Source of the DNA: an uncultured Gammaproteobacteria bacterium
Lineage (GTDB): Bacteria; Patescibacteriota; Microgenomatia; UBA8517
NCBI GenBank assembly: GCA_964506225.1
Contig: CAZDKH010000009.1
Location: 1 to 55,858 of the forward strand
Reading direction: 5' to 3'
Length of the DNA stretch: 55,858 nucleotides
In this document: piece after piece, positions 9,773-52,232 of the stretch
Layout of the letters: every line of letters begins with the position of its first letter
How positions within the stretch are numbered: position 1 is the first letter of the stretch
Made by a program: the position numbers and the translations under genes
Notes under the pieces: generated by a model
Seen by the model: the letters and a program-made list of their open reading frames with translations, nothing else
The model's database searches: none
What the model was told of the DNA's origin: nothing

Positions 9773-11047
9773 CTATATAAGATTGGCCACTTTTTCACCC
9801 ATGGCGATGGCGTAGTTGGTTCCCCTATCCCAAGGGTAGACCTGCTGCATGGTGGCGATAAAGAGCCTTGGTACTGGGGAGACAACATCTGGCAGATGTT
9901 TTGAGTAGTTCTTTGGAAAAACTGGTTGGGCGTAAGGAGTTTTGAAAACTTCAACTCCGATTATATTTTTTTCGAAACCTGGATTTATTTTTTTGAGGTA
10001 TTTTTTATAAAGTGAGACTAATTTTTTCTTGTCAAGCCAAAACTGCTTGTCTGTGGCAGGAAGATATTTCCCCACATATAAGAGGTGCTCCCCGCCATAG
10101 TTTTTCTTATTTATAAAGTTGGTATGTTCAACAACAGCCACAAAAGGATATGAAAGATCGTTTATATTTAGCCAGTAAGTCTTATCGGGTAAAAAGGGTT
10201 TCTTAAGTCTTATAACCACATTTATTACTCCAAGTTCTCTTACCATTAAGAATTTTTTTTTGTATTTTTCTGGCAATCCAGGGAAGATTTTATCAAAAGT
10301 TTTGAAGGGGATTGTCGAGATTAAAAAATCAAACTTTTGACTTTCGGCTTTTCCTGAATTTTCATATTTAATCACAAATTTGTCCTTGTTCTCTAAAACC
10401 TTTACAACACAAGTTTCGTAAAAAATTTTACCCCTTTTTTTAATTATTTTTTCTGCTAGTTTTTCAGCCAGAGTCAGGTAACCCCCCTCCGGATAACCTA
10501 GTTTTCTACTCCTTTTGTGAATTCTGGTCCAAAACCAGTAAGCTGGAATTTCTTCTGCGAGTTTCCCAAATTTTCCATAAAAAAGTGGTTTCCAAAGAAC
10601 CCGCCAGGTTTGTTCTCCCATGGTTTTTCTTATAAATTCTTCAGAAGTTGAACTTTCTAAAATCTTCCAAAAGGGGTTTAGTTTAAGAAAAAATATGACG
10701 GTTCCGGTTCTTAGTCGGTTGATAAAGCTAAGATGGGGGAAGTTAAATAAGCTTTTGGGTGAGTCTAGTTGATATATGTTCCCATTTAGATAAGTTGAAG
10801 TTTTAGGAGTATAAAAGTTTGTCTTAATTCCAACTTCTTTAGCTAAATTTAAAGCGAAGTGATCAGAGGTAAAGAAATGGTGATAGTAGTACTCAAGAGG
10901 CCAGTTCCAATTATCTTTTCTAAACCCCCCAGCTAACCCTCCGGGGCCTGTATGTGCTTCAAAAATACTCACCCTGTGTCCTCTTTGTGCAAGTCTTAGT
11001 CCTGCACTCAAGCCTGTAAATCCAGCACCAATTATCGCAATATCCAT
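9773..11047 (-). CDS. FAD/NAD(P)-binding oxidoreductase (amine-oxidase / protoporphyrinogen-oxidase-like fold)
   Basis: N-terminal dinucleotide-binding motif DIAIIGAGFTGLSAGLRLAQRGHRVSIFEA...GPGGLAG. The ATG at 11047 is preferred over the TTG at 11056. Confidence 0.7.
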   Translation of the reverse strand: MDIAIIGAGFTGLSAGLRLAQRGHRVSIFEAHTGPGGLAGGFRKDNWNWPLEYYYHHFFTSDHFALNLAKEVGIKTNFYTPKTSTYLNGNIYQLDSPKSLFNFPHLSFINRLRTGTVIFFLKLNPFWKILESSTSEEFIRKTMGEQTWRVLWKPLFYGKFGKLAEEIPAYWFWTRIHKRSRKLGYPEGGYLTLAEKLAEKIIKKRGKIFYETCVVKVLENKDKFVIKYENSGKAESQKFDFLISTIPFKTFDKIFPGLPEKYKKKFLMVRELGVINVVIRLKKPFLPDKTYWLNINDLSYPFVAVVEHTNFINKKNYGGEHLLYVGKYLPATDKQFWLDKKKLVSLYKKYLKKINPGFEKNIIGVEVFKTPYAQPVFPKNYSKHLPDVVSPVPRLFIATMQQVYPWDRGTNYAIAMGEKVANLI

Positions 11048-20983: not shown

Positions 20984-21376
20984 TTACTTTACTTCTTGAT
21001 ATTTCTCGTATTTTTTGAAAATCTTCATAAGTTTTATGTCAAAGCTTTCTAGCTTTGCTTTGTTTTCTAGGGTCTCTGCGATCAGGAGGCAATCGTAAAA
21101 GCTTATGTTTTCGCCTTTGTAGATTGTTAAGGCTAGAGGAGTAAATTGCGGTGATGAGATATTTGGTTGTTTGATAAAGGCAAACAGACTCTCACAAATA
21201 TCTAATTTTCTTGCTTGGTAATGATTTTCTAGAATAAAGACAGTTTCGGCTAAAACAATTGTGGCTATGTAGATTTTTTTGGTTTTGGAAAGTGTCTCTT
21301 TTGCTTTTTGTGCTTGTTCTGGTATGTCTTTGGTAAAAAAGCGAATAAGATAATTAGTATCCAGATAGATTGTCAT
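20984..21376 (-). CDS. vapC: PIN-domain toxin, VapC family
   Basis: IYLDTNYLIRF (first acidic residue), LAETVF, FYDCLL, SFD. 4-nt overlap with the upstream antitoxin. Confidence 0.8.
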   Translation of the reverse strand: MTIYLDTNYLIRFFTKDIPEQAQKAKETLSKTKKIYIATIVLAETVFILENHYQARKLDICESLFAFIKQPNISSPQFTPLALTIYKGENISFYDCLLIAETLENKAKLESFDIKLMKIFKKYEKYQEVK

Positions 21377-36913: not shown

Positions 36914-39085
36914 ATGAAACAAGAATATTACTGGTCCCTAACAATTGAGCCGGGGTGGGTCCAAAGTTCTCTCTGGAGCATTGGTGAAGATAATAGGGCT
37001 AAAATTTTTTCGATTTCTCAAGCTAGTCATTGGGAGACAGATTCTGAACTTGTGGAAGTGGTCGACGCGTCACTTTCAAGTATAATCGTCGCTCTTCCCG
37101 AAGGAGCAAAAGAACCCTCTAAAACAATTCTTGGCTTTTCTCCATCTTGGATTGGTGATGGAAAAATAAAAGAAGAGTACCTCACAAAGGTTAAAAAGAT
37201 CTGTTCTAAGCTTTCTTTGGATCCAGTTGGCTTTGTTGTTCTTCCAGAGGCAATTGCTTTTTATAAAAAACAAGATGAACAGGTTCCATTAACCGCAGTG
37301 GTTGTTGGTGTAAGTGAAGGAAGTATTGATGTAGGTCTTTTCAAGCTTGGAAATTTAGTTGGCACAGTAACCGTTGTAAGAAGCGTTTCTCTTTTCGACG
37401 ATGTGGTGGAAGGTCTGGTTGGCCTTAAAATTCCAGATCAGATTCCTTCTCGATTTATAATCTATAACGGAAAGGAAAAAGATCTTGAGGAGGCACGTCA
37501 AGCTATTGTTACAGCTGACTGGGAGGCAGTTTCGGATAAAATAAAACTTTTGCACACTCCCAAAGTTGAAGTAATTGACGCAAAGGAAAAATTAATAGCC
37601 GTCTCTTTGGCTGGAGCATCAGAAATCGGCAAAGTTACAGGTTATGACCTTGTAGAAACTTTTCAAGAGGTAAGCGGTGTGAAACCTTTACAGAAACTAC
37701 CAGAAGAATTACCAGAAAAAAAAGAAGCCTTTGATGAGGAACTAAAAGAAGTGACTGAGGGGTCAGGATTTGTAATTGGGCGGGATATTCAGGAATTACC
37801 TCTTTCTGTTAGGGAGACTCCGTCGCAAGAGCCGCCCCTGCAACCTCCAATTTCTGAGAGACAAAAACCGCTTGTTACTAGCCTATTTACTTCGAAATTG
37901 AGAGGAAGATTTGTGAGATTTCCACAATTTAGATTTCCTTCTTTTGAAATCGGTAAAAAACCGTTTGTTTTTGGAGGAGTTTTTCTTCTTTTATTCTCTA
38001 TAGCAGGATTTATGATTTGGTGGTTTTTTCCCAAAGCGACTGTAACAATTTATATAAATTCCAAAAAGCTAGAAGATGTTCAAACTGTAACTTTTGACCC
38101 AAAAAGAGAGTTATCTGACTATTCTCAAAAGGTTTTGACAGGCAAGATTGTTCAATACACACCAGAGGGGGAGAAGACAACTTCGGTAACCGGCTCTAAA
38201 ACCGTTGGCGAGAAGGCTAAAGGAAAGGTGCAAATTAGAAACGGTACTTCTAGTACGATTAATATCGCGGGAGGAACAACAATCGTTGGCCCAAATGATT
38301 TAAAATTTAGTCTAGACTCGGCGGCTTCTGTTTCTGCTGCTTCTTCTCCAACATCGCCTGGGACTGCCTTAGTAGAGGTGACGGCGGAAGATATCGGAGC
38401 TGAATATAATCTTGCAAAAGGCGAGTCGTTTAGCGTCTCAAACTACCCAAAAAGCGAAGTGGATGCAGTTTCTGAGGAGGATTTCTCCGGGGGCACGAGC
38501 AAAGAAATATCCGTTGTTGCCACAGCCGACCAGAAAAGCCTAGAGGACGAACTCAAAAAAGAACTTCTAGAAAAAGGCAAGACACAAATTCGCAATGGTT
38601 TGTTGGAGGGGGAGATTTTTATAGATGAGGCTGTCAAAACCGATACCAGCAAAAAAGATTTTAGTCACAAGGTCGGAGATGAGACTACAACCCTTAAACT
38701 TACAATGCAGTTGTCAATTTTTGGACTTGTAGTTTCTAAAAAAGAGCTTAACAGTTTAGCTCAAACGATTTTAAAAGACCGGGTACCAAGTGGGTATGTC
38801 TTAAGAGACGAACAGATAGACACAGCTTTTTCCTTGAAAGGACAAAAGGATAATTTATGGGAGGTAGAAGTTACTTTTATTGCCAACCTTCTTCCTGAAA
38901 TCAAAACAGAAGAAATTGCCTCCAAGATATCGGGTAAATACCCCCACCTTGCTCGGGATTATCTCTCTTTGATTCCAGGCTTTAGTTCTGCTGAAATTGT
39001 TTTGAATCCTCGCCTTCCCGGAAAACTGGGTACCCTTCCTCGGGTTTCCAAAAATATTTCCATAGAGATTGTAGCTGAGAAATAG
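36914..39085 (+). CDS. Bitopic 723-aa protein: cytoplasmic N-terminal domain (possibly a degenerate actin/ASKHA-like fold), one TM helix, large extracellular domain with a baseplate-J-like sequence pattern
   Basis: TM helix FVFGGVFLLLFSIAGFMIWWFF at about residue 350. N-terminal strands SLTIEPGWVQSSLWSI and AVVVGVSEGSIDVGLF. The extracellular segment GKVQIRNGTSSTINIAGGTTIVGPNDLKF...ALVEVTAEDIGAEYNLAKGE resembles Baseplate_J-type repeats. Assignment is from memory only. Confidence 0.35.
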   Translation: MKQEYYWSLTIEPGWVQSSLWSIGEDNRAKIFSISQASHWETDSELVEVVDASLSSIIVALPEGAKEPSKTILGFSPSWIGDGKIKEEYLTKVKKICSKLSLDPVGFVVLPEAIAFYKKQDEQVPLTAVVVGVSEGSIDVGLFKLGNLVGTVTVVRSVSLFDDVVEGLVGLKIPDQIPSRFIIYNGKEKDLEEARQAIVTADWEAVSDKIKLLHTPKVEVIDAKEKLIAVSLAGASEIGKVTGYDLVETFQEVSGVKPLQKLPEELPEKKEAFDEELKEVTEGSGFVIGRDIQELPLSVRETPSQEPPLQPPISERQKPLVTSLFTSKLRGRFVRFPQFRFPSFEIGKKPFVFGGVFLLLFSIAGFMIWWFFPKATVTIYINSKKLEDVQTVTFDPKRELSDYSQKVLTGKIVQYTPEGEKTTSVTGSKTVGEKAKGKVQIRNGTSSTINIAGGTTIVGPNDLKFSLDSAASVSAASSPTSPGTALVEVTAEDIGAEYNLAKGESFSVSNYPKSEVDAVSEEDFSGGTSKEISVVATADQKSLEDELKKELLEKGKTQIRNGLLEGEIFIDEAVKTDTSKKDFSHKVGDETTTLKLTMQLSIFGLVVSKKELNSLAQTILKDRVPSGYVLRDEQIDTAFSLKGQKDNLWEVEVTFIANLLPEIKTEEIASKISGKYPHLARDYLSLIPGFSSAEIVLNPRLPGKLGTLPRVSKNISIEIVAEK

Positions 39086-39784: not shown

Positions 39785-40160
39785 TTATGGATTGAGAAAA
39801 ATTGGTCTAGCCATCTCTGAGGGGCAATTTGCTAGGCCCTTTTGTGTAATACGTCTTTCTGAAAAAAGCAGGGCACTCAGAAAAATTGCTAAAATCGTCC
39901 AAGAACAAAACATCAAAAAAATTGTAATTGGTATTTCAGAGGGTAAAATGGCTAAATTATCAAAGGAATTTGGAAAAATGCTTTCGAAGAAATTAAAGAT
40001 TGAAGTCAATTATGTTGATGAAACTCTTAGTACTTCGGATGCCCAAGATTTTGCGATTCAGGCTCATATCCCCCAAAGAAAAAGAAGAAGACTAGAAGAT
40101 GCATATTCAGCGGCTTTAATACTTCAAAGATACTTAGAAGATTGTACTTGTGCGAAGTAG
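39762..40160 (+). CDS. ruvX: Holliday junction resolvase-like / pre-16S rRNA nuclease RuvX (YqgF)
   Basis: LLGIDYGLRKIGLAISEG motif and about 130 aa size. Overlaps the sortase 3' end by 23 nt. Confidence 0.8.
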   Translation: MMRLLGIDYGLRKIGLAISEGQFARPFCVIRLSEKSRALRKIAKIVQEQNIKKIVIGISEGKMAKLSKEFGKMLSKKLKIEVNYVDETLSTSDAQDFAIQAHIPQRKRRRLEDAYSAALILQRYLEDCTCAK

Positions 40161-40194
40161 TTTCATAGGTGGTAAAATAAGATAATTCTTTTAT

Positions 40195-40398
40195 ATGTTT
40201 AAAAATATAATTGCACCAATTCAGGCTTGGCTACTTAGTCAGGGTAAATGTGTGGGCTGTGGGACGCCGCTTAATAAAGGTAAAAGCGAGAAAAGAAAAG
40301 ATGGCACATTTCAGGTTACTTGCAAATGCAGAAGAATATATATTTATGATGCAAAAACCAAAAGATACAGAAGAGCCCTCATAAGTGAAGTTAAATAG
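40195..40398 (+). CDS. Small zinc-ribbon protein (CxxC...CxC), hypothetical
   Basis: KCVGCG...VTCKCR and a basic C-terminus. Sits between ruvX and mltG. Confidence 0.45.
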   Translation: MFKNIIAPIQAWLLSQGKCVGCGTPLNKGKSEKRKDGTFQVTCKCRRIYIYDAKTKRYRRALISEVK

Positions 40399-40400
40399 CT

Positions 40401-41381
40401 TTGATTAGGAAAATCTCAATACTTCTTGTTGTTTTATCGGTTATTTTTGTTTTTGGGCTTTTGGGAGTTTTTGTGTGGTGGAAGGATGCAAGCGGGTCTG
40501 TCGGTAGTGACCCAAACCCCAAAAGATTTGTGGTTGTAAAGGGAACCAGCGCAAGCCAAATAGCTGAAAATTTATACAAAGCCGGTCTTATAAAAAGTAC
40601 TCTTGCCTTCAAGTTTTACGTCCAGTTGATTGGTAAATCTGATCAGATTAAAGCAGGACAATACGATATACCCCAGAATTACTCACTTACTCAGGTTGTT
40701 GCAACTTTAATGCAAAATCCCAAAGAAGTTTGGGTCACCATTCCAGAGGGATTAAGACGCGAAGAAGTTGTGCGAAAGATTATTGAGGGTTTGCATTTTC
40801 CGCCAGAAGAAGCCGAGTCCTTTGGAGAAGAGTTTTTAGCTTTAACAAAAGATAAAGAGGGGTTTCTTTTTCCGGATACCTATCTTTTTCCGATAGATGT
40901 GAAGGCCGCTACTGTTGTGAATGTTATGGAAAATACTTTTAAAAAGAAGGTAGGGGAGGTAGATAGGAAGAGTGTTATTCTTGCCTCAATTATCGAGAGA
41001 GAAACGAAAACTGATGAGGAGAGGCCGGTGGTTGCAGGAATATTAATAAAAAGGCTTGAAGCAGGTTGGCCTCTTAATGTTGACGCAACTGTTCAATACG
41101 CCCTAGCAAATGAAAATTGTAAATTGGAAATTGAAAATTGTATCGATTGGTGGCCAAAAATTACAAGAGATGATTATCAATTTAACTCTCTATATAACAC
41201 CTATAAGTTTGCCGGACTCCCTCCGGGCCCTATTTCAAACCCTGGTCTTTCTTCTATTAAAGCAGTTCTAGCCCCTAAACAAAGTGACTATTGGTACTAT
41301 TTACACGCGCCTGATGGTAAAATTTATTATGCAAAGAATCTTAAAGAACATAACCAAAACATTCAAAAGTATTTGAAATAA
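40401..41381 (+). CDS. mltG: Endolytic murein transglycosylase MltG (YceG family)
   Basis: N-terminal TM helix, LysM-like segment VKGTSASQIAENLYKAGLIKS, EGFLFPDTY, ASIIERET, YNTY...GLPPGPISNPG. Confidence 0.9.
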   Translation: MIRKISILLVVLSVIFVFGLLGVFVWWKDASGSVGSDPNPKRFVVVKGTSASQIAENLYKAGLIKSTLAFKFYVQLIGKSDQIKAGQYDIPQNYSLTQVVATLMQNPKEVWVTIPEGLRREEVVRKIIEGLHFPPEEAESFGEEFLALTKDKEGFLFPDTYLFPIDVKAATVVNVMENTFKKKVGEVDRKSVILASIIERETKTDEERPVVAGILIKRLEAGWPLNVDATVQYALANENCKLEIENCIDWWPKITRDDYQFNSLYNTYKFAGLPPGPISNPGLSSIKAVLAPKQSDYWYYLHAPDGKIYYAKNLKEHNQNIQKYLK

Positions 41382-41388
41382 ATTCTGC

Positions 41389-41416
41389 TTGACAGGCAAG
41401 TTTTATCTAGTATAAT
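41389..41416 (+). promoter_or_regulatory. Consensus promoter of rpoBC (TTGACA-16-TATAAT)
   Basis: Perfect hexamers in the mltG-rpoBC spacer. Shares CTTGACAGG with the tuf promoter. Confidence 0.6.
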
Positions 41417-41425
41417 TCAGCATAG

Positions 41426-41462
41426 GCGTACTAATGTACGCTGATCCTCAGTCTGACTGAGG
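41426..41462 (+). other. Two small hairpins in the rpoBC 5' leader
   Basis: GCGTAC-taat-GTACGC (41426-41441) and CCTCAGT-ctg-ACTGAGG (41446-41462), followed by AATTTT. Confidence 0.4.
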
Positions 41463-41491
41463 AATTTTGCGTAAAAAACAAAAAATCCTCG

Positions 41492-44400
41492 ATGATTAAG
41501 GGCCAATATAAACATCGTTACCTAGGGAGAGAGGAGAAAGATTTACCTAAACTTAATCTTTCTGAAGTCCAAAAAGAAAGTTGGAGTTGGTTTCTTAATA
41601 CCGGAATTAGTCAAGAAATTGCAGAAATTTCACCAATTGATGATTTTACCGGCAGGAACTGGCAACTTATCTTAAGCGACCCGGTTTTGGATACACCTGA
41701 GATTACTCCACAGATTGCTCGAGAAAAGGGACTTACCTACTCCTCGCCATTTCGTATTAAGGCAAAGCTTATTAACAAGAAAACAGGAAAAGAAGTCTCG
41801 CAAGAAGTTTTCTTAGGGGAGATTCCCCAGATGACTCCTGCTGGTACCTTTATTATAAATGGTATTGAACGCTGTGTTATTAATCAGTTGGTTCGATCTC
41901 CTGGTATTTACTTTTTTGGAGATTTAGATGTCTCAAGCGGTAGAATGCTTTATAAAGCAGAGATTCGCCCCCTTCATGGGTCATGGCTTGAATTTGAGGT
42001 TTCTCGTAACGATGTTATTGCAGCCAGAATTGACAAGAGGAGAAAAGTGGCTGCAACAACCCTACTTCGTGCAATGGGGGTTGAAACTGATGATCAGATT
42101 CTTTCCATTTTTAGTGCCGTTGATAGTGATCAAAATCACAAGTATATCAAAAGCACGATAGATAAAGACCCTGCTAAGAATCGTGATGAAGCCCTTCTGG
42201 AAATCTACAGGAGATTAAGACCAGGAGAGCCAGTTGTGCTTGAGAATGCTCAAAATCTTTTTAATAATCTTTTTCTGGATCCAAGACGTTATGATCTTGG
42301 CAAGGTGGGTAGATATAAAATCAACAAAAGGCTTGGACTTGATATACCTAATGAAAAGGGTACTTGGGTTCTAAAAAAGGAAGACATAATTGCAGCACTT
42401 ACCTATATTATAGGTTTACAAAACGGCCAGGGTACTTTGGATGATATTGACCACCTTGCCAATAGGCGTTTACGAAGAGTCGGGGAACTTGTAGCAACCC
42501 ACGCTTTCCGCGTAGGGCTTTTGAGGCTTGAAAGATCGATCAAAGAGAAAATGAGCCTTATTTCTCCTGAGGATAAACCTCTTCCTTCCGGGCTTATTAA
42601 TGCTCGTCCACTTATTGCTTCAATCAACGAGTTTTTTAGATCAAATCAACTTTCAGTTATCTTGGATGATACTAATCCTTTATCTGAGATTGATAATATT
42701 CGGCGCGTGTCTGTTTTGGGTCCTGGTGGGATAAGCAGGGAGCGTGCGTCTTTTTCTATTCGCGATGTTAATTCTTCCCAATACGGAAGGATTGATCCCG
42801 TGCGTTCTCCAGAGGGGCCAAACATTGGTCTTGTGACTTATCTTGCCCTTTATGCACGTATTAACGAATATGGTTTTATTGAAACCCCTTACCGAAAGGT
42901 AGAAAAAGTAAAAATTGGGCAGAAGGTTAAAGTGAGGGTGACCGATGAAATCGTATATTTGGCAGCAGATGACGAGAGCGAATATCATATCAGCCATTCT
43001 AATATCAAGATAGATGAGAAAGGTTTTATCCAAGAGGAAAGAGTCGCTTTCCGTCACCATGGGGCATTTATAGAAGGGTCGGTAGAACTTGTTGATTTTA
43101 TTGATGTTACACCGCGGCAAGTCTTTGGTGTTTCAGCTGCTCTTATTCCCTTTTTGTCACATGATGAGGGAAATCGTGCTTTGATGGGCGCTAATATGCA
43201 ATGTCAGGCGGTTCCTCTTATTGCACCCCAAGCACCTATTGTGGGGACTGGTATGGAGGGTGTTGTGGCAAGCGCCATGGGAAGAGTTGTGAGAAGCGAC
43301 TGTAGTGGAGTAGTCACTTATGTTGACGCAAACAGGATAGAAATTACCGGTAAGGAGGGAAAATTCGTTTATAACACAACAAAGTTTATGCGTACCGCCC
43401 AGTCCACATGTTACAACCAAAAAGTCAAAGTTGTGGTCGGTCAAAAAGTAAGGAAAGGAGATTTAATAATTGACGGTCCGTCAAGCGAGGATGGACTTTT
43501 GGCTTTAGGACAAAATTTGGTGGTTGCTTACTGTTCATACGGTGGTTATGGTTTTGAAGACGCAATTCTTATTTCCGATCGTCTGGTAAAAGATGATCTT
43601 TTAACTTCGATTCACATTAAGGAATATCAGGCGGATGTAGTTGAGACAAAGCTTGGACCAGAAGAACTCACTCGTGACATTCCCAATGTTTCTGAGGCAG
43701 AGTTGGCAAACTTGGCTGAGGATGGAATTGTGGTTGTTGGTGCTAAGGTTGGTCCAAACGATATTCTTGTGGGGAAAATTGCACCAAAGGGTGAAACTGA
43801 ATTAACCTCTGAAGAAAGACTCCTGAGGGCCATTTTCGGAGAAAAGGCTCGTGAAGTCCGAGATACCTCTTTGCGAGTTCCTCATGGTGAAGGTGGAATA
43901 GTAACGGATGTGAGCATCTTGGATCGTACGAAAGGTGATGAACTAGGTCCAGGTGTTATTAAAAGCGTGATAGTTAAGGTTGCCCAAATGAGAAAAGTGA
44001 TGGTTGGAGATAAACTTGCCGGTCGCCATGGTAACAAAGGTGTAATCTCCAAAATAATGCCTGCTTCAGATATGCCGTATCTTGCCGATGGAACGCCTGT
44101 AGATATTATCATTTCTCCTCTTTCTGTGCTTTCGAGAATGAATTTAGGGCAGCTTTTAGAGTGCCATTTGGGCTGGGCACTTAGTAAAAATGCTGAAAGA
44201 GCTTCAATCCCAGTTTTTGATGAGATAGGGGAGGACTTTATCGCTAAAGAACTCGAAAGAGCCGGTCTTCCCAGGACTGGTAAGACAAGACTTTATGACG
44301 GGATAACTGGTGAGCCTTTTAAAGAAGAGACGGTGGTTGGGATAGGTTATATCTTAAAACTTAAACACATGGTTGAGGATAAGACTCATGCTCGTTCAAC

Positions 44401-47400
44401 TGGTCCATATTCCCTTGTTACTCAACAGCCTCTTGGGGGCAAAGCTCAAATGGGGGGGCAACGCCTTGGAGAAATGGAAGTTTGGGCGCTAGAAGCTCAT
44501 AGAGCAGCATATTCGCTTCAGGAGATGTTGACCATTAAAAGTGACGATATTGTGGGCCGTGCACAAGCTTTTGGGGCTATTGTAAAAGGAGAGGATATTC
44601 CTGAGGCTAAGGTACCCGAAAGTTTCAAAGTTTTAGTTAGGGAGCTTAACTCTTTGTGTCTGGCAATAGAGGCAGGTGGGATTGAACCTTCTAGTGAGGA
44701 GGTCTCAGTAGACATTCCAAAGATTGAACTAGAGAAATCAAGCTCTCATGATTCACTTTTGGAACTTAGAAATCTGGCTGATTTTAAGACTCTTAAGATA
44801 AGGCTTGCATCACCTAGAGAAATCCGACTCTGGTCAAGAGGAGAGGTTACAAAACCAGAAACGATTAACTATAGAACCCTGAAGCCTGAAAAGGATGGAC
44901 TTTTTGACGAGAGGATTTTTGGTCCAACCAAAGATTGGGAATGCTATTGTGGTAAGTACAAACGCATACGCTATAAAGGGGTTATCTGTGATAAATGCGG
45001 AGTAGAAGTTACAGAGTCAAGAGTCAGGCGCGAAAGAATGGGACATATCGACTTGGCTGCTCCTGTTGTCCATGTTTGGTTTTTTAAGGGTGCACCATCG
45101 CGGATTTCTTTGCTTTTGGATCTCCCTCCTAGGGCAATTGAACAAGTAATTTATTTTGCGCGTTATCTTGTACTTTCTGTTGAAGAGAATAAGCGGCGTG
45201 AAGCCCTAAAAGTAATTGAGGTGAAAAAGAAGGAAAAGTTGGATGAGCTAAAGGAAATTTTTTCTCAAAGAAAAAAGCTCATTGAAGACGAAGCTAAGGC
45301 GGAAAGAGAGAAGGCAAAAGAGCGTGTAAAAGGGAAGGACCAGCTTGCTCTTGCTCTTTCAGAGATAGATTTAACAACACGCAAGAAAGAAAACTCTTTA
45401 CATGAAGAAGAGAAAAGGAGTTTTGAGAGAACTGAAGAGGTTTTTACGCGTCTGACTAACCTTGTCAAGGATATTTCCGTCCCTGGTTTTCTCTCAGAGG
45501 AAGAGTATGATGAGCTTTTGTCTTTTGATGCAGCAGATTTTATTGAAGTAAAAATGGGAGCAGAAGCTATTTTGCGGGCCCTGGAGGCAGTTAATTTAGA
45601 CAAAGTTTCCATTGAGATAAGAAAAGAGATAGAGGAAACAAAAACCAAAAGTCCACGCTATGTCAAACTTACTAAACGCCTGAAGCTGGTTGATGGTTTG
45701 AGAATGGCAAAAGTTGATCCCACTTGGATGGTAATTCGTGTTCTGCCGGTTCTCCCTCCAGATCTGAGACCAATGGTTCAACTGTCGGGGGGTCGCTTTG
45801 CTACAAGTGATTTAAATGATCTTTACAGGCGCGTAATCAATAGAAATAACCGTCTCAAACACCTTATTGCTCTTGGTGCGCCCGAGATTATTTTGCGAAA
45901 TGAAAAAAGAATGCTTCAAGAAGCAGTCGACTCATTGATAGACGCCTCCCAGCGCAAAGCCACCAGAAGGGGGCGAGGTAGACAAATTCTTCGCTCACTT
46001 TCCGATATGCTTAAAGGAAAACAGGGAAGATTTAGACAGAATCTTCTCGGAAAAAGGGTTGATTATTCAGGAAGAAGTGTGATTATAGTGGGTCCTGAGC
46101 TTAAACTTACTCAGTGTGGTCTTCCAAAAGAGATGGCTTTGGAAATGTTTAAGCCTTTTGTTCTTCACGAAATGATAGAAAGAGGAATTGCGCCCAATGT
46201 CAAAAATGCCAAAAACATGCTTGAGAGACGCCCGCCTGAGGTTTTTGATATTTTGGAAGAGATTACTCGTGAACACCCGGTCTTGCTTAATAGAGCACCA
46301 ACCCTTCACAAGCTGGGCATTCAGGCATTTTACCCTGTTTTAATTGAGGGGAATGCAATTCGTATTCATCCTGCTGTTTGTTCTGGATTTAATGCTGACT
46401 TTGACGGAGATCAGATGGCGGTTCACATTCCTTTATCTAAAAAAGCCATCGAAGAGTCTTTAAACTTAATGCTTTCTGATAAAAACCTCTTAAGGGTAGC
46501 TGATGGTTCGCCAATTACAGCACCTTCTTCAAAAGAGATGGCTTTGGGTATTTATTATCTTACCAGTGAAGATGTGAGAATTCCTCCTTTTGAGGGTATT
46601 TTTGCTGATAGCGCTGAGGCAATATTGGCATATCAACTGGGTGTTATCGAATTAAGGCAAAAAATAACAGTGAGAGTTAGAGGAAAAAGGATTGAAACTA
46701 CCGTTGGAAGAATTCTTTTCAATGAAGTGATTCCGGAGGATTTTGGCTTTATCAATGAAGGGGTTAGTTCATCGGTTATCAAATCGCTTATTAATGATGC
46801 TTTTACTAAAGTTGAGAGGGCTAAGGTTGTTGAGCTTATAGATGCGATAAAGGATCTTGGCTTTTGGGGCGGAACAATTTCCGGAATTTCCTTTGGTATC
46901 TCAGATGCGGTAATTTTGCCTGAAAAGGGAAAACTTATTGCTGAGGCTGATAGACGTGTCTCTGAAATCGAACGCAACTACCTCGATGGGCTTATTACTT
47001 TAGAAGAGAAAAAAAGACTTACCCAAGAGGTTTGGATTGAGACAACCGAAGAGATTGCTGATAAAACATGGGAGATTATCGAGCCAACTGGATCCATAAG
47101 AACTGTTATAGATGCAAAAGTTGGTAGAACTTCAAGAGACCAAATCAAGCAACTGGCGGGAATGAGAGGATTGGTTGTTGATCCGCTCGGCAAGATTGTT
47201 GAGCTTCCTATTAAAAGTAACTTTCGTGAGGGTCTGTCGGTTTTTGAATACGTGACTTCAAGTCGCGGATCGCGCAAGGGCTTGACTGATACCGCGATAA
47301 AGACCGCTGATGCCGGTTATCTAACCAGGAGATTGGTTGATGTTGCCCACGACGTTATCATCCGTGAAGAGGACTGTGGGGTACAAGAGGGGATTATCAT

Positions 47401-48469
47401 CAGAAGAGATGTTCGTCCCCAATCTTTTGCCAAAAGAATTTTTGGCAGATATCTGGTTGAAGACATTAAAGACGATAAGGGAAATTTGCTTGTCAGGAAG
47501 GGCGAAATTTTAGACGAAGCCAAGGCAAAAGAGATTGAGGATAACCAGTCAATTGCCGAAGTACATGTACACTCGCCACTTACTTGTTTAAGTCGCTATG
47601 GTGTCTGTGCAAGGTGCTATGGATGGGACCTTTCAAACAAAAAACCTGTTCAGATAGGAGTTCCTGTTGGAGTAATTGCTGCCCAATCTATAGGCGAGCC
47701 CGGGACTCAGCTTACTCTTAAAACAAAACACTCAGGTGGAGTAGTTGGCGTGGATATTACTCAGGGTTTGCCTCGTGTGGAGGAGCTTTTTGAAGCCAGA
47801 ACTCCCAAGTCTTTATCTCCTTTGAGTGAAATTGCCGGACGGGTAAGTATCAGCGAGTCTGATGAAGGTTGGGTAGTTAGAGTTGAGAATCTAAACATCA
47901 AACCCAGGGAGGAACGGGAGTATATTATTCCAAAGGCGAGTAAACTTCAGGTTGAGGATGGTCAGTTTATTGAAGTTGGTACTCAACTTGCATCAGGCTT
48001 TTTGGATATCAAGGAAATTTTAGCTGTAAATGGTCTGAGGGCTGCACAGGAATACTTAGTTAATGGTTTTCAGGCGGTTTATGAATCTCAGGGAATTCCG
48101 ATTAACGATAGACATTTTGAGATAATTGTTAGGAAAATGAGTGATGAAGTAAAGATAATTACTTCAGGAGATACACCCTTTTTGCCGGGTGAGCTTATAG
48201 AAAAAGCAAGGTTTGAAGAAGAGAATGAAAAAATTTTGGCTGCCGGAGGTGAACCTGCAAGTGCACGACAGATTATTTTGGGTATAACACGTAGGGCTCT
48301 TTATACAGAGAGTTGGCTTTCTGCGGCCAGTTTTGAACAGACAACTGATATTCTCACTGATGCGTCTCTTCTTGGAAAGGAGGATAGACTTTTGGGTCTT
48401 AAGGAGAATGTAATAATTGGACGGCTAATTCCTGTTGACCCCGAACGAGCCTCTTTCGCAAAAATCTGA
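41492..48469 (+). CDS. rpoBC: Fused DNA-directed RNA polymerase beta and beta-prime subunits (RpoB-RpoC single polypeptide, 2325 aa)
   Basis: RpoB motifs ([57 protein letters not shown]). These are joined in frame by a linker at 44681-44752 to RpoC motifs ([49 protein letters not shown]). There is no stop codon in between. Confidence 0.9.
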
Positions 48470-48491
48470 TATAATTAAATCCTATAAAATT

Positions 48492-48938
48492 ATGCCAACC
48501 ATATCACAATTAGTTAGGAAGGGCAGAAAAAAGCTCACTAAAAAGACAAGAAGTGCTGCCTTAAAACGTTGGTTTAATGCGAAGGACCGTCGCTTCAAAA
48601 CCATTGCTGCCCCTTTTAAACGAGGGGTTGTGTTAGCTGTGAGAACAATGACTCCCAAGAAACCAAATTCAGCCCTGCGTAAAGTGGCCAGAGTAAGGCT
48701 GTCAAATAAACAAGAAGTGACTGCTTACATTCCCGGAGAGGGCCATGATCTTGCTGAACACGCGATTGTTCTTGTCCGGGCGGGGCGCGTAAGAGACCTT
48801 CCCGGAGTTCGTTATCAAGTTGTTCGGGGTAAATTTGCAACAAGTGGGGTTGTGGGTAGAAAAACTTCACGCTCGCGTTACGGTACAAAGAAGGAGGGAG
48901 TACAAGCTAAAGCAGAAGCTCAGGTAGCACAAGCATAA
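48492..48938 (+). CDS. rpsL: 30S ribosomal protein S12
   Basis: [53 protein letters not shown]. The ATG at 48492 avoids overlap with rpoC. Confidence 0.95.
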
Positions 48939-48944
48939 AATTTT

Positions 48945-49424
48945 ATGGCACGCAGAGGTCCGGCAAAACAAAGAAAAATTAATCCTGACCCAATTTATCA
49001 AGATCAACTTGTGGCAAAGTTGATTAACCGTTCAATGAGAGAGGGAAAAAAATCTGTGGCCGAAAAGCAGGTATACAAAGCATTTGAGATTATCAAAAAG
49101 AAAACTAAAGAAGACCCTGTTGAAATTTTTTTAAAGGCACTGGGTAATATCAAGCCTTCCATGGAAGTAAGACCAAGAAGAGTGGGGGGAGCTGCGTATC
49201 AAGTGCCAATGCCTGTTAGAGGAGAAAGGAAAAATTCTCTGGCTATACGTTGGTTAATTCTTGCCGCACGTTCACGCCCAAACAGTGAATTTCACACCTA
49301 TGCAGAAAAGTTAGCCGCAGAAATTCTGGATGCTGCAAAAGGCGAGGGGGCGGCGGTAAAAAAGAGAATGGATACAGAACGCATAGCCGAGGCCAACCGT
49401 GCCTTTGCCCACTTTAGGTGGTAA
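48945..49424 (+). CDS. rpsG: 30S ribosomal protein S7
   Basis: DPIYQDQLVAKLINRSMREGKKSVAEK and MEVRPRRVGGAAYQVP. Confidence 0.95.
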   Translation: MARRGPAKQRKINPDPIYQDQLVAKLINRSMREGKKSVAEKQVYKAFEIIKKKTKEDPVEIFLKALGNIKPSMEVRPRRVGGAAYQVPMPVRGERKNSLAIRWLILAARSRPNSEFHTYAEKLAAEILDAAKGEGAAVKKRMDTERIAEANRAFAHFRW

Positions 49425-49453
49425 AATTTACTGCTTATTACTAATCTCATCCG

Positions 49454-49482
49454 TTGATTTTAGTATAACAGCTTGTTACAAT
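49454..49482 (+). promoter_or_regulatory. Putative internal promoter upstream of fusA (TTGATT-17-TACAAT, with TGt extended -10)
   Basis: Read directly in the rpsG-fusA spacer. Confidence 0.35.
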
Positions 49483-49492
49483 TCTTAACTGT

Positions 49493-49514
49493 CCCCGAAT
49501 GGGGCGGTTTTTTT
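49493..49514 (+). terminator. Weak hairpin + T-run (possible attenuator/terminator) between rpsG and fusA
   Basis: CCCC-gaat-GGGG, then cgg, then TTTTTTT. The stem is only 4 bp, so this is weak. Confidence 0.25.
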
Positions 49515-49532
49515 GTTACAATTTAAAAAACA

Positions 49533-51695
49533 ATGCCGGCACAACAGATTAAGAAAAAAAGCGCAATGGTCATGACGGTTACCAAAGACAGGATTGTTCC
49601 TTTGGAGAAAATCCGAAATATTGGGATAATTGCCCATATTGATGCAGGGAAGACTACCACTACTGAGCGCATTCTTTTTGAAACAGGAAGAACCTATAGG
49701 CTAGGGTCAGTTGACGAAGGAACAACAGTCACCGATTGGATGGCACAAGAAAGAGAAAGAGGAATTACCATAGTTTCTGCTGCCATTACAACTTTTTGGG
49801 ATTTGAAAGAGAAAACTTCTGTTGATTCTGGACATTACAGGATAAATATCATTGACACTCCGGGACATATTGATTTTACAGCTGAAGTTGAGAGAAGTCT
49901 TAGGGTTTTGGATGGAGCTGTTATGGTTTTTGATGGCAGAACCGGAGTTGAATCTCAATCCGAAACAGTTTGGAGACAGGCTGATAAATACAATGTTCCA
50001 AGAATTTGCATTTTAAATAAATTAAATTTAATCGGAGCTGATTTTGAAGGATCGATAAAAAGCATTAGGGAGCGTCTGGGTGCAAATGCCGCGCCAGTGC
50101 AGATTCCAATTGGTATTGAGCATTCTTTGCATGGAGTAATTGACTTAACAAAAATGAAGGCTTATACATATCAGGGGATTGAGGATAACAAACTCAAAGA
50201 AGAGGAAATTCCGACTGAGCAAGTTGAAGAGGCAAAAAAATACAGGGAAGAATTGATAGAGAAAGTGGCTGAGTTTGATGATGCGACCTTGACAAAATAT
50301 CTTGAAGGCCAAGAACTTTCAGAGATTGATATAAAAAGAGCCATAAGAAACGGTGTCATAGCTGGTAAATTTTTTCCAATTTTAGGAGGAGACAACAGAA
50401 CTGCAACAGTGCAACTTTTGTTAGACGCCATTGTTGAGTACTTGCCTTGTCCTTTGGATATTTCTGAAATTAGCGGAGTTAACCCAAAAACTGGCGAAAA
50501 AGAAAAGCGGGAGTTTAAAAATGAAGAGCCATTTAGCGCTTTAGCCTTTAAAGTAGTAACAGACCCTCACGTTGGCAGACTTGTTTACATTCGAGTTTAT
50601 TCAGGAAAAATTACAGCTGGACAAGTTGTATACAACGCATCCAAGAGGCTTTCTGAGAGAGTGGGTAAGCTGGTTCTTTTGCACGCGGACCAAAGAGAAC
50701 TTATCAACGAGGCTTACACAGGTGAAATAGTGGCTCTTGTTGGGGTTAAAGATACTACAACCGGTAATACGCTTTGTGACCCGGGCCATCCGATACTTCT
50801 TGAATCAATTGAATTTCCAGACCCGGTGATTAGCCTTGCAATAGAACCAGCGACAAAAGCTGATCAGGAAAAAATGGGCCTTGCTTTAAATAAACTTTCT
50901 GATGAAGACCCAACTTTTAAAATCAAATCAAATCTCGAGACTGGTCAGACTATCATTTCAGGAATGGGTGAGCTACAGCTTGAGATTTTGGTTGATCGAA
51001 TGAAAAGAGAATTCAATGTTGACGCCAAAACAGGAGCTCCGCAGGTTGCCTATAAAGAAACTATTAGAGGTACAGCCAAGGCAGAAGGAAAGTATATTCG
51101 CCAGAGCGGTGGTCGTGGTCAGTATGGTCATTGTTTTCTTCGAGTTGAACCCAAGGGAAGAGGAGAGGGTTTTGAGTTCAAAAACGAGATTAAAGGTGGA
51201 GCGATTCCATCTGAATTTATTCCGGCAATAGAGAAGGGAGTTATAGAAAAACTTGAAAATGGAATCTTGGCAGGATATCCTGTTGTAGATATAAAAGTTG
51301 CTGTTTATGATGGAAGTTTCCATGAGGTAGACTCCTCTGAAATCGCTTTTAAAATTGCCGGTTCAATTGCTGTTGAGGAAGCAGTACGTCAGGCTGGACT
51401 TATACTTTTGGAGCCCATTATGAAGCTTGAGGTCTCTACCCCCGAGGAGTATATGGGTGATATTATTGGAGATTTATCTAGTCGGAGATGTCAGATAAGG
51501 GGAACTGAGATGAGAGGCAATGTTACCATAATTTATGCTTTTGGTCCTCTAGCTGAGCTTCGCGGCTATGCCACAAATCTTCGTTCAATTTCCAAAGGCC
51601 GAGCCAGTTTTTACATGGAACCAAGTCATTATGAAGAAGTCCCGGCCAATATTGCCCAAAACATTATTTCCAAGGGCGGCAAATCTACAAATTAG
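49533..51695 (+). CDS. fusA: Elongation factor G
   Basis: [36 protein letters not shown]. Start uncertain; ATG at 49566 or 49572 would give the usual N-terminal length. Confidence 0.95.
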
Positions 51696-51712: not shown

Positions 51713-51976
51713 TTAAAACTCATATATCCCAACCGTGTGGAATCTGGCAGTATCTATCTTTGTAAATTCAAGAACAATTTTATATCCATGACCGATTGAA
51801 AATGCCCACAATTTTCTGTACTTTTCGGATATCTTGACTGTTTTTAGTCTTAAATCAAAAGGATAATTTCTGAAAATTTCTTCTTTTTTCTCAGCCAAAA
51901 GCTTTATTTTTAAAGGTAGTTTTCTATACTCCTTGGCAAATTTTGGGGAATAATAAATTTTCATCGATTTAATCAT
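51713..51976 (-). CDS. RelE/ParE-superfamily type II toxin
   Basis: About 85 aa. YSPKFAKEYRKLP...IFRNYPF...LKTVKI..KYRKLWAFSIGHGYKIV.EF pattern. 8-nt overlap with the upstream small ORF. Confidence 0.65.
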   Translation of the reverse strand: MIKSMKIYYSPKFAKEYRKLPLKIKLLAEKKEEIFRNYPFDLRLKTVKISEKYRKLWAFSIGHGYKIVLEFTKIDTARFHTVGIYEF

Positions 51977-52193
51977 TCAGTTCCTTGAGGGAATTAAGTA
52001 ATATTCCCTTACCACTTGAAAACTCTTGCCTACTTTCTTTTACTTCTTCTTTGACTTTGTTTTCTAGAAAGTAGCGAAAGATGTAGGTAAAAAACTCACT
52101 TTCTGTTGCAAAATTTCCATTTTTAAGGTTTTTTTCAACAATTTTAGCCAGAGTTTTTGAAAGGGAAATTTTAAAATTAACTACCTTCTTCAT
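51969..52193 (-). CDS. Cognate antitoxin candidate (small, ribbon-helix-helix-like N-terminus)
   Basis: ATG at 52193 (MKKVVNFKISLSKTLAKIVE...) lies just downstream of a TTGACT-16-TAATAA promoter. It overlaps the toxin start. Confidence 0.5.
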   Translation of the reverse strand: MKKVVNFKISLSKTLAKIVEKNLKNGNFATESEFFTYIFRYFLENKVKEEVKESRQEFSSGKGILLNSLKELND

Positions 52194-52204
52194 TGCTACC
52201 AAAG

Positions 52205-52232
52205 TTATTACAAAATACAAAAATTAAGTCAA
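52205..52232 (-). promoter_or_regulatory. Putative promoter of the RelE/ParE-type TA pair (TTGACT-16-TAATAA)
   Basis: On the minus strand, TTGACT at 52232-52227 and TAATAA at 52210-52205. The ATG at 52193 lies 11 nt downstream. Confidence 0.4.

Follow-up and report, generated by a model that had tools for sequence, protein, structure and literature searches.

An in-frame fusion of rpoB and rpoC in a subclade of Woesebacteria-type Patescibacteria

The subunit architecture of RNA polymerase is among the most conserved features of bacteria; the β and β′ subunits are encoded by separate genes, rpoB and rpoC, in almost all bacteria, and few natural fusions are discussed in the literature. Here, we ask whether rpoB and rpoC on contig CAZDKH010000009.1 (assembly GCA_964506225.1), which was analyzed over its 55,858 nucleotides (nt) and is referred to as the window, form a genuine fusion gene, how such a gene could have arisen, and what it would encode. 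The question was raised by an earlier inspection of the DNA without database searches (the sequence-only reading), which described the two genes as one continuous open reading frame (ORF) of 2325 codons and proposed an independent fusion in a streamlined lineage. Both proposals were borne out. Based on the analyses presented here, we are nearly certain that the two genes are fused, and we consider it very probable that the fusion is a true in-frame join of rpoB and rpoC that has been inherited by a subclade of Woesebacteria-type Patescibacteria.

The ORF listing of the window contains a single rpoB-rpoC ORF on the plus strand (41492..48469) that starts with an ATG and comprises 2325 codons plus the stop codon, and translation using table 11 revealed no internal stop codons. 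The β moiety occupies amino acids (aa) 1-1063 (41492..44680) and is full length, with the NCBIfam profile PRK00405 matching aa 11-1060 over profile positions 6-1093 of 1096 (1401 bits, cutoff 896) and TIGR02013, also for RpoB, scoring 1393 bits (cutoff 801). Similarly, the β′ moiety (aa 1086-2325; 44747..48466) is full length, with TIGR02386 matching aa 1101-2315 over profile positions 2-1138 of 1147 (1524 bits, cutoff 963.5). Alignment to profile hidden Markov models (HMMs) of this kind had been suggested as a means to fix the boundary. Six Rpb2-type domains (Rpb2_1, 2, 3, 45, 6, and 7), all above the Pfam gathering scores, lie in order within aa 61-1060 and are followed, also in order, by four Rpb1-type domains (Rpb1_1, 2, 3, and 5) within aa 1097-2266. 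Because two profiles are matched end to end, chance can be excluded as the source of an open frame of 2325 codons. The order of rpoB followed by rpoC in one frame, without a stop codon or frameshift, is that of a natural β-β′ fusion, and the G+C content across the gene is even (0.42-0.43). All of the motifs quoted in the sequence-only reading were found where it had placed them: PESFKVL in the RpoB C-terminus (aa 1042-1048), with the EAGG that terminates at nt 44680; the β′ N-terminal zinc-binding motif CYCGKYK...CDKCG (aa 1151-1170; 44942..45001); and the catalytic magnesium-binding motif NADFDGD (aa 1634-1640; 46391..46411). The β′ moiety also carries an insertion of ~110 aa inside the Rpb1_1 domain that is rich in Lys and Glu and predicted to be helical, at approximate coordinates ~45250-45810 of the window (~aa 1255-1440); the domain correspondingly has 422 residues spanning 312 profile positions. 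This insertion is probably the lineage-specific insertion described for Chloroflexi and the candidate phyla radiation (CPR) in PMC11515920.

To describe the junction, we aligned 63 fused proteins and bounded the linker by exact anchors. In these proteins, the RpoB C-terminus is conserved (...PESFKVL[IV]RELNSLGLAxxxEG), and the linker is followed by the conserved block x-D-P-L-x-x-L-x-x-L-E-D-F-x-x-L-x-I-R-L-A-S-P. RpoC of unfused relatives starts with M-E-P/Q-L-x-x-L-K-N-L-x-D-F-K-S-L-x-I-R-L-A-S-P, which matches this block; therefore, the fused proteins retain the entire β′ N-terminus. Because His1086 and Asp1087 of the window protein are homologous to Met1-Glu2 of the free RpoC of unfused relatives, the linker is 22 aa long (aa 1064-1085; 44681..44746); thus, the Ser/Glu-rich linker noticed earlier is real, and the length of 24 residues assigned to it (44681-44752) is not. 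The window junction carries the signature of the clade, i.e., ...ELNSLxLAxxxxG, an acidic linker, and x-D-P/S-L-x-x-L...LASP, with the last part reading HDSLLEL...IRLASP and Ser at position 3. Among the 63 fused homologs, linkers are 3-55 aa long (median 21, interquartile range 16-24) and acidic: Asp and Glu account for 27% of the linker residues, against 15% over the whole protein, and the net charge averages −2.4; none of the linker columns is conserved in the alignment. The shortest linker has 3 aa (P0011; P and L designate homologous proteins and genomic loci, respectively), and linkers of this length imply that the β C-terminus and the β′ N-terminus must be close in the folded enzyme. The ancestral initiator position of rpoC is occupied by Met in only one of the 63 proteins and by Thr (18), Val (7), Ser (7), Ala (6), and other residues in the rest, while the three following positions are almost invariant (Asp in 63/63, Pro in 58/63, and Leu in 60/63). 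At the codon level, this position is CAT in the window (His1086; 44747..44749) and AAA, CCG, GTT, CGC, ACT, GTA, GGA, ATG, and GTC in nine GTDB genomes. Consensus scans detected neither a promoter nor a terminator at the junction, and the window junction contains no homopolymer run. A prediction of the junction segment (aa 911-1266) using AlphaFold2 without an alignment gave a mean predicted local distance difference test score of 37, which, from an alignment-free run, is uninformative on linker disorder.

The fusion is reproducible. An identical gene is present on the JGI metagenome contig Ga0129301_1000096, with 0 differences over 6978 nt and one difference over 12,978 nt when flanks are included. 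The nearest relative of the window protein, P0002 (2320 aa, ~79% identical), is also fused and was recovered unchanged from Logan SRR35045363, JGI 3300029288, and ENA ERZ27247363; its linker DNA has strongly diverged from that of the window, yet is in frame. In a search of 5.8 billion proteins, P0002-P0062, from NCBI, JGI, ENA, and Logan, were full-length fused proteins of 2308-2366 aa with 70-79% identity over 99-100% of the query, demonstrating that the fusion is inherited and not a one-off error. Of these, P0005, P0008, P0013, P0020, and P0023 are encoded on contigs of 0.6-0.9 Mb. The few named members of this set are titled "Patescibacteria group bacterium", and a truncated relative (P0063) is named "Candidatus Woesebacteria bacterium GW2011_GWC1_4...". 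In the public records, the fused proteins are labelled "subunit beta'" or left without a name.

To place the fusion among unfused relatives, we used a profile of the junction to scan GTDB genomes, one for each species, which yielded at least 80 loci that serve as examples rather than a complete count. Of the 80 loci listed, nine are fused, as verified by walking the reading frame through each (L001-L006, L008, L014, and L032), including "Ca. Woesebacteria RIFCSPLOWO2_01_FULL_44_24b", UBA5941, and UBA1430; ~40 are unfused Patescibacteria, among them the Ca. Woesebacteria-titled records CP066686 (L007), CP055308 (L013, a complete genome), and UBA8517 (L015), and the remainder are unfused Actinomycetota and Firmicutes. 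In a neighbor-joining tree with a simple distance correction (2266 aligned RpoB+RpoC columns, 107 taxa, 200 bootstraps), P0001-P0062, of which P0001 is the window protein, together with the locus L042 formed a clade with 100% bootstrap support, and P0001 paired with P0002 at 99.5%. A clade of 22 unfused loci (92%) is the sister of this clade, and the two together have 100% support. The RpoB and RpoC halves of the window protein are each 70-73% identical to those of the unfused relatives L007 and L013. The junctions in the sister genomes, a comparison that had been proposed as a check, differ: nine of nine GTDB species genomes of the fused clade read through, whereas the unfused sister clade keeps the stop codon and a separate rpoC ATG. 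Altogether, the recurrence of the fusion in assemblies and homologs and its nesting among unfused Patescibacteria support that it is genuine and independent, and the record titles and synteny support that the streamlined lineage is patescibacterial. As a separate observation, many GTDB representative records titled 'uncultured Gammaproteobacteria' or 'uncultured Pseudomonadales' (isolates binchicken_* and SRP*_co*) are Patescibacteria based on RpoBC phylogeny and the 10-gene synteny; such mistitled loci include L001, L004-L006, L008, L011, L012, L017-L019, L021-L023, and others.

The unfused relatives suggest how the fusion arose. In these, the distance from the rpoB stop codon to the rpoC ATG is mostly −17 to +24 nt, with a few gaps of up to 105 nt, and the two genes are in the same frame in L007, L009-L013, L015-L017, L019, L021, and L025. 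Because the stop codon and the ATG are close and often in frame in the unfused sister clade, loss of the rpoB stop codon is the simplest and the likely origin of the fusion. We suggest that in the ancestor, the rpoB stop codon was located a few nucleotides from the rpoC ATG, often in the same frame, in an arrangement suggesting translational coupling; either one nucleotide substitution in this stop codon or a small indel would then have sufficed to join the two genes. After the fusion, the rpoC ATG would have decayed, and the C-terminal tail of RpoB would have given way to the short and variable acidic linker. This tail is a conserved acidic stretch of ~45 aa in the unfused sister clade (ELAKAAGAEVVATxELxxxxGPMEVEEV) and is also present in the outgroup locus L025. 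Its last codons read GAGGAGG and lie 10-23 nt 5′ of the rpoC ATG (L007, L009-L013, L015-L017, and other unfused loci, ~10130-10260); the tail might have a role at the protein level or provide a Shine-Dalgarno site for coupled translation of rpoC. A profile of the tail scored no better against the fused linkers than against shuffled controls. Because the fused linkers show no trace of it above these controls, the tail was probably lost after, or together with, the fusion. For the same reason, homology between the linker and the tail cannot be claimed, and a first impression that the tail of L042 retains the acidic motif was not supported by the profile search. The window linker does contain a Shine-Dalgarno-like GAGGAGG (44696..44702), here in Glu-Glu-Val codons, that may be a relic of a coupled junction.

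What would such a gene produce? We suggest that it would be translated into one β::β′ polypeptide of roughly 260 kDa, as estimated from its length, that folds with the α dimer into a normal crab-claw core. The β C-terminus and the β′ N-terminus are adjacent on the enzyme surface. An engineered rpoB-rpoC fusion in Escherichia coli is functional, as cited in bioRxiv 10.1101/2021.11.05.467461, and the Helicobacter enzyme is described as tethered in work by Zakharova et al. (1998 and 1999) as cited in PMC9696931; the functional engineered fusion and the uncleaved Helicobacter protein argue for this end-to-end adjacency. The acidic linker could then act as a flexible surface tether between the two ends. 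A fusion would fix an obligatory 1:1 ratio of β to β′, the last assembly step would become intramolecular, and the covalent tether would take over the role in co-expression that translational coupling plays in the relatives. In all likelihood, the product stays uncleaved.

Alternatively, the gene is fused and two subunits are nevertheless made, either by internal initiation near the junction or by proteolysis in the linker. The linker is exposed, acidic, and unconserved, it contains GAGGAGG, and no feature of the sequence forbids cleavage. However, within 5-13 nt past this GAGGAGG, there is no in-frame ATG, GTG, or TTG, and the ancestral start codon has been lost in the window and in all but one of the aligned proteins. 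Moreover, the linkers have no conserved motif resembling a protease site and can be as short as 3 aa, and according to Zakharova et al. (1998), cited in PMC9696931, the fusion in Helicobacter exists as one tethered polypeptide. Based on these observations, we consider the production of two subunits unlikely and favor that the inherited in-frame fusion yields one chain. Several points weigh against this conclusion and against the history proposed for the gene. Post-translational cleavage in the linker is compatible with the sequence, on which the conclusion rests. The linker has a ribosome-binding-like GAGGAGG, though without a canonical start codon after it. The top 60 PDB hits included neither a structure of a naturally fused chain nor a chain spanning both halves, and because of this, the geometry of the tether is modeled on split enzymes. 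The origin by stop codon loss is deduced from extant relatives, and the phylogeny is based on neighbor-joining with a simple distance correction. Finally, L042, which is nested in the fused clade, can be annotated as split genes; what separates this locus from a single ORF is one base of an A6 run.

L042 (CAZCXV010000002.1, 10255-10285) has an rpoB stop codon and a separate rpoC, though it lies inside the fused clade. It is 75-77% identical to the window protein and adjoins P0001/P0002, with 60% support for its exact position and 100% for clade membership; a fused clade without L042 has 0% bootstrap support. Its junction reads ...GAG ACT AAA AAA TAA ATA T ATG AGC..., and deleting one A of the A6 run gives a continuous ORF (...EETKNKYMSNTTTDTLLDL...). 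In L042, RpoC shares the derived Asp2 of the fused clade, and its start codon is located 5′ of the ancestral one. L042, therefore, reflects an error in the homopolymer or else a secondary split that occurred recently. A similar situation, in which the fused gene is apparently split, was described for Helicobacter pylori SouthAfrica20 (PMC6403173). A relative with a stop codon and a separate rpoC start had been named at the outset as an observation that would speak against the fusion, and L042 formally is such a relative; however, it does not refute the fusion because the closer relative P0002 (~79%) and all other members of the clade are fused. L042 also raises the idea that the fused state is unstable and reversible, with slippage in homopolymers toggling between fused and split genes and the window representing one of two polymorphic states. 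The position of L042 inside the clade, the frameshift at its A6 run, and the derived Asp2 with the upstream start codon fit such a secondary split. However, more than 70 clade members were examined, and L042 is the only such case; an assembly error explains it equally well, and the window junction, which lacks a homopolymer run, is identical in a second assembly. We regard reversibility as quite improbable and a stably inherited fusion as the better explanation of the window.

An assembly or sequencing artefact, in which a missing or extra base erased the stop codon of rpoB and thereby merged two ordinary genes, can be considered effectively refuted. Single-base homopolymer errors can act either way, and L042 and H. 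pylori SouthAfrica20 show that such calls are fragile, but at least 62 clusters of diverged homologs from four data sources have the same fused frame, as do nine GTDB species genomes among the matches listed. In addition, the gene is identical in another assembly, the linkers vary in length and sequence between relatives and are always in frame, and no artefact would account for the loss of the ancestral start codon.

Natural β-β′ fusions are documented in Helicobacter/Wolinella and in Wolbachia (PMC9696931; PMC6403173). The RpoBC proteins of Helicobacter/Wolinella resemble that of the window in being a natural in-frame fusion that gives one polypeptide and is fixed in a whole clade and, as in the clade of the window, frameshifts of a single A in homopolymers apparently split the gene in some genome records (PMC6403173). 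They differ in belonging to a different phylum and in having a length of ~2890 aa, ~565 aa more than the window protein, due to lineage-specific insertions. Wolbachia RpoBC (~2839 aa) is likewise a natural β-β′ fusion in a bacterium with a reduced genome; it differs in being alphaproteobacterial and of independent origin. The E. coli fusion has the same order of β followed by β′ and, being artificial, is a precedent for the mechanism only. An origin shared with the Helicobacter/Wolinella or Wolbachia fusions, by ancestry or by horizontal transfer, is almost certainly wrong: the fusions share their overall architecture, and high raw scores with the NCBIfam models for fused proteins follow from matches to both halves, but the window protein reaches 2098 bits (cutoff 5372), in six separate stretches, with the Helicobacter-type equivalog NF007172/PRK09603 and 1975 bits (cutoff 4632) with the Wolbachia-type equivalog NF011417/PRK14844, both far short of the cutoffs, it nests in Patescibacteria beside unfused relatives with a common 10-gene synteny to which each of its halves is 70-73% identical (L007 and L013), and even other fused lineages of Patescibacteria (P0064-66 and P0067) do not group with its clade (0% bootstrap). 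Because the nearest relatives of the window are unfused Patescibacteria, its fusion originated independently of that in Helicobacter. The closest precedent is a fused β-β′ in 'Candidatus Adlerbacteria', to which PMC11515920 (Protein Sci 2024) devotes one sentence; these bacteria also belong to the CPR/Patescibacteria but to another lineage than the clade of the window, which is titled Woesebacteria. Our literature searches found no dedicated report of an rpoB-rpoC fusion in Patescibacteria or Woesebacteria. Thus, a fusion in the CPR has been noted before, and the fusion in the Woesebacteria subclade is a further independent case of a known oddity.

To evaluate how widespread such fusions are, we searched 1.84 billion representatives clustered at 50% identity exhaustively using HMMER and a junction-spanning query of 1200 aa and mapped the two halves with profile HMMs. 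At least 23 full-length representatives (2031-2859 aa) have RpoB running into RpoC in one chain with gaps of 0-118 aa, and several junction-spanning fragments were found beside these (among P0125-P0268; L081-L084). The 23 representatives are candidates and not verified lineages, and some of them may be artefacts of gene calling, sequencing, or genetic code. P0064-66, P0067/P0125, and P0068/69 share the fused architecture with the window; they differ in their linkers, lack the x-D-P-L block, and do not group with the clade of the window (0% bootstrap for a grouping with P0064-66). P0065 has the same Microgenomates-type synteny as the window on a separate branch, P0067 is found in the context ftsW-rpoBC-rpsF, with rpsF-ssb-rpsR downstream, and P0068 in the canonical context nusG-rplKAJL-rpoBC-rpsLG. 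Judged from these sequences, β-β′ fusion seems to be rare but recurrent, in varied contexts, and under-reported rather than unique, which tempers the surprise at the fusion in the window; its spread seems far wider than the two textbook cases suggest. It recurs especially where rpoB and rpoC are tightly coupled and in frame. The fused and unfused sister clades with identical synteny provide a clean comparative system for the origin of a fusion, and for the classification of Woesebacteria-type genomes, fused versus split genes offer a cheap synapomorphy. On the practical side, the fused proteins are an annotation pitfall: pipelines for marker genes in which rpoB and rpoC are presumed to be separate will mishandle them. 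It is tempting to go further and to speculate that the fusion was an adaptation by which an ultra-small cell rewired the assembly of its RNA polymerase and which defines the clade; the tether would have replaced coupling, and single-base slippage as in L042 would make the change reversible. We consider this model doubtful. If it were true, fused and split RNA polymerases would be alternative states under selection, and the CPR, with its recurrent fusions, would be a natural experiment on why β and β′ are normally separate.

The fused gene lies in the gene order alaS, Baseplate_J-like protein, sortase, ruvX, mltG (yceG), rpoB/C, rpsL, rpsG, fusA, tuf, and rpsJ, which is common to fused and unfused Patescibacteria loci. 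The upstream neighbor is mltG/yceG (40401..41381, plus strand; PF02618, E = 1.4e-73), and rpsL and rpsG follow downstream on the same strand (48492..49424; assigned by synteny, with rpsL beginning where the gene call in L085 places its start), after which the str operon goes on with fusA, tuf, and rpsJ. A sigma-70-type promoter with a perfect 12/12 match (TTGACA, 16 nt, TATAAT; 41389..41416, plus strand) is located ~75 nt upstream of the ATG and is the only 12/12 site that consensus scans identified within 40100-49600. A promoter with an 11-12/12 match and a 16-nt spacer is present upstream of rpoB in 8/8 fused loci tested and in 22/23 loci comprising the unfused sister clade plus L042, and this conservation argues that the promoter is functional. 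The 5′ leader that follows (41425..41463, plus strand) is predicted to fold into two hairpins at 41425-41442 and 41445-41463, with ATTTTG following the second, which the consensus scan scored as terminator-like; the leader has a minimum free energy of −21.7 kcal/mol (z = −3.27), and none of 200 shuffled sequences folded as well. Judging from this predicted fold, the leader may serve in attenuation or autoregulation. The sequence-only reading had listed the short halves, the lack of rplKAJL upstream, and the presence of mltG and a promoter alongside the fusion. These observations are correct; however, they describe traits of the lineage and do not correlate with the fusion because they are equally true of unfused relatives, in which RpoB is ~1060-1160 aa long, and we reject a link between the fusion and either the absence of rplKAJL or short subunits. 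RpoB of the CPR is described as lacking most lineage-specific insertions in PMC11515920.

We also made a few observations on neighboring genes. The 55.9-kb window contains no tRNA genes and no matches to Rfam families at the gathering threshold. Between fusA and tuf, where the gap is ~975 nt in the window compared with ~100 nt in several relatives, two overlapping ORFs of 87 aa (51713-51976) and 83 aa (51969-52220) are located on the minus strand; they have no Pfam match at E ≤ 0.1, and their layout resembles that of a toxin-antitoxin pair. A PIN-domain gene (20984-21373, minus strand) is located between dnaK and dnaJ in the hrcA-grpE-dnaK-dnaJ cluster and is possibly another toxin-antitoxin insertion. 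Between alaS and the sortase gene, a protein of 723 aa (36914-39085) with a weak Baseplate_J-like match (E = 1e-6) is encoded; of the Microgenomates-type loci examined, essentially all retain this protein, irrespective of fusion. Lastly, a small ORF of ~67 aa with no recorded Pfam match lies between ruvX and mltG (40195-40398). Gene calling in the second assembly includes it, and the loci of P0002 and P0065 have an equivalent of ~66 aa in the corresponding position.

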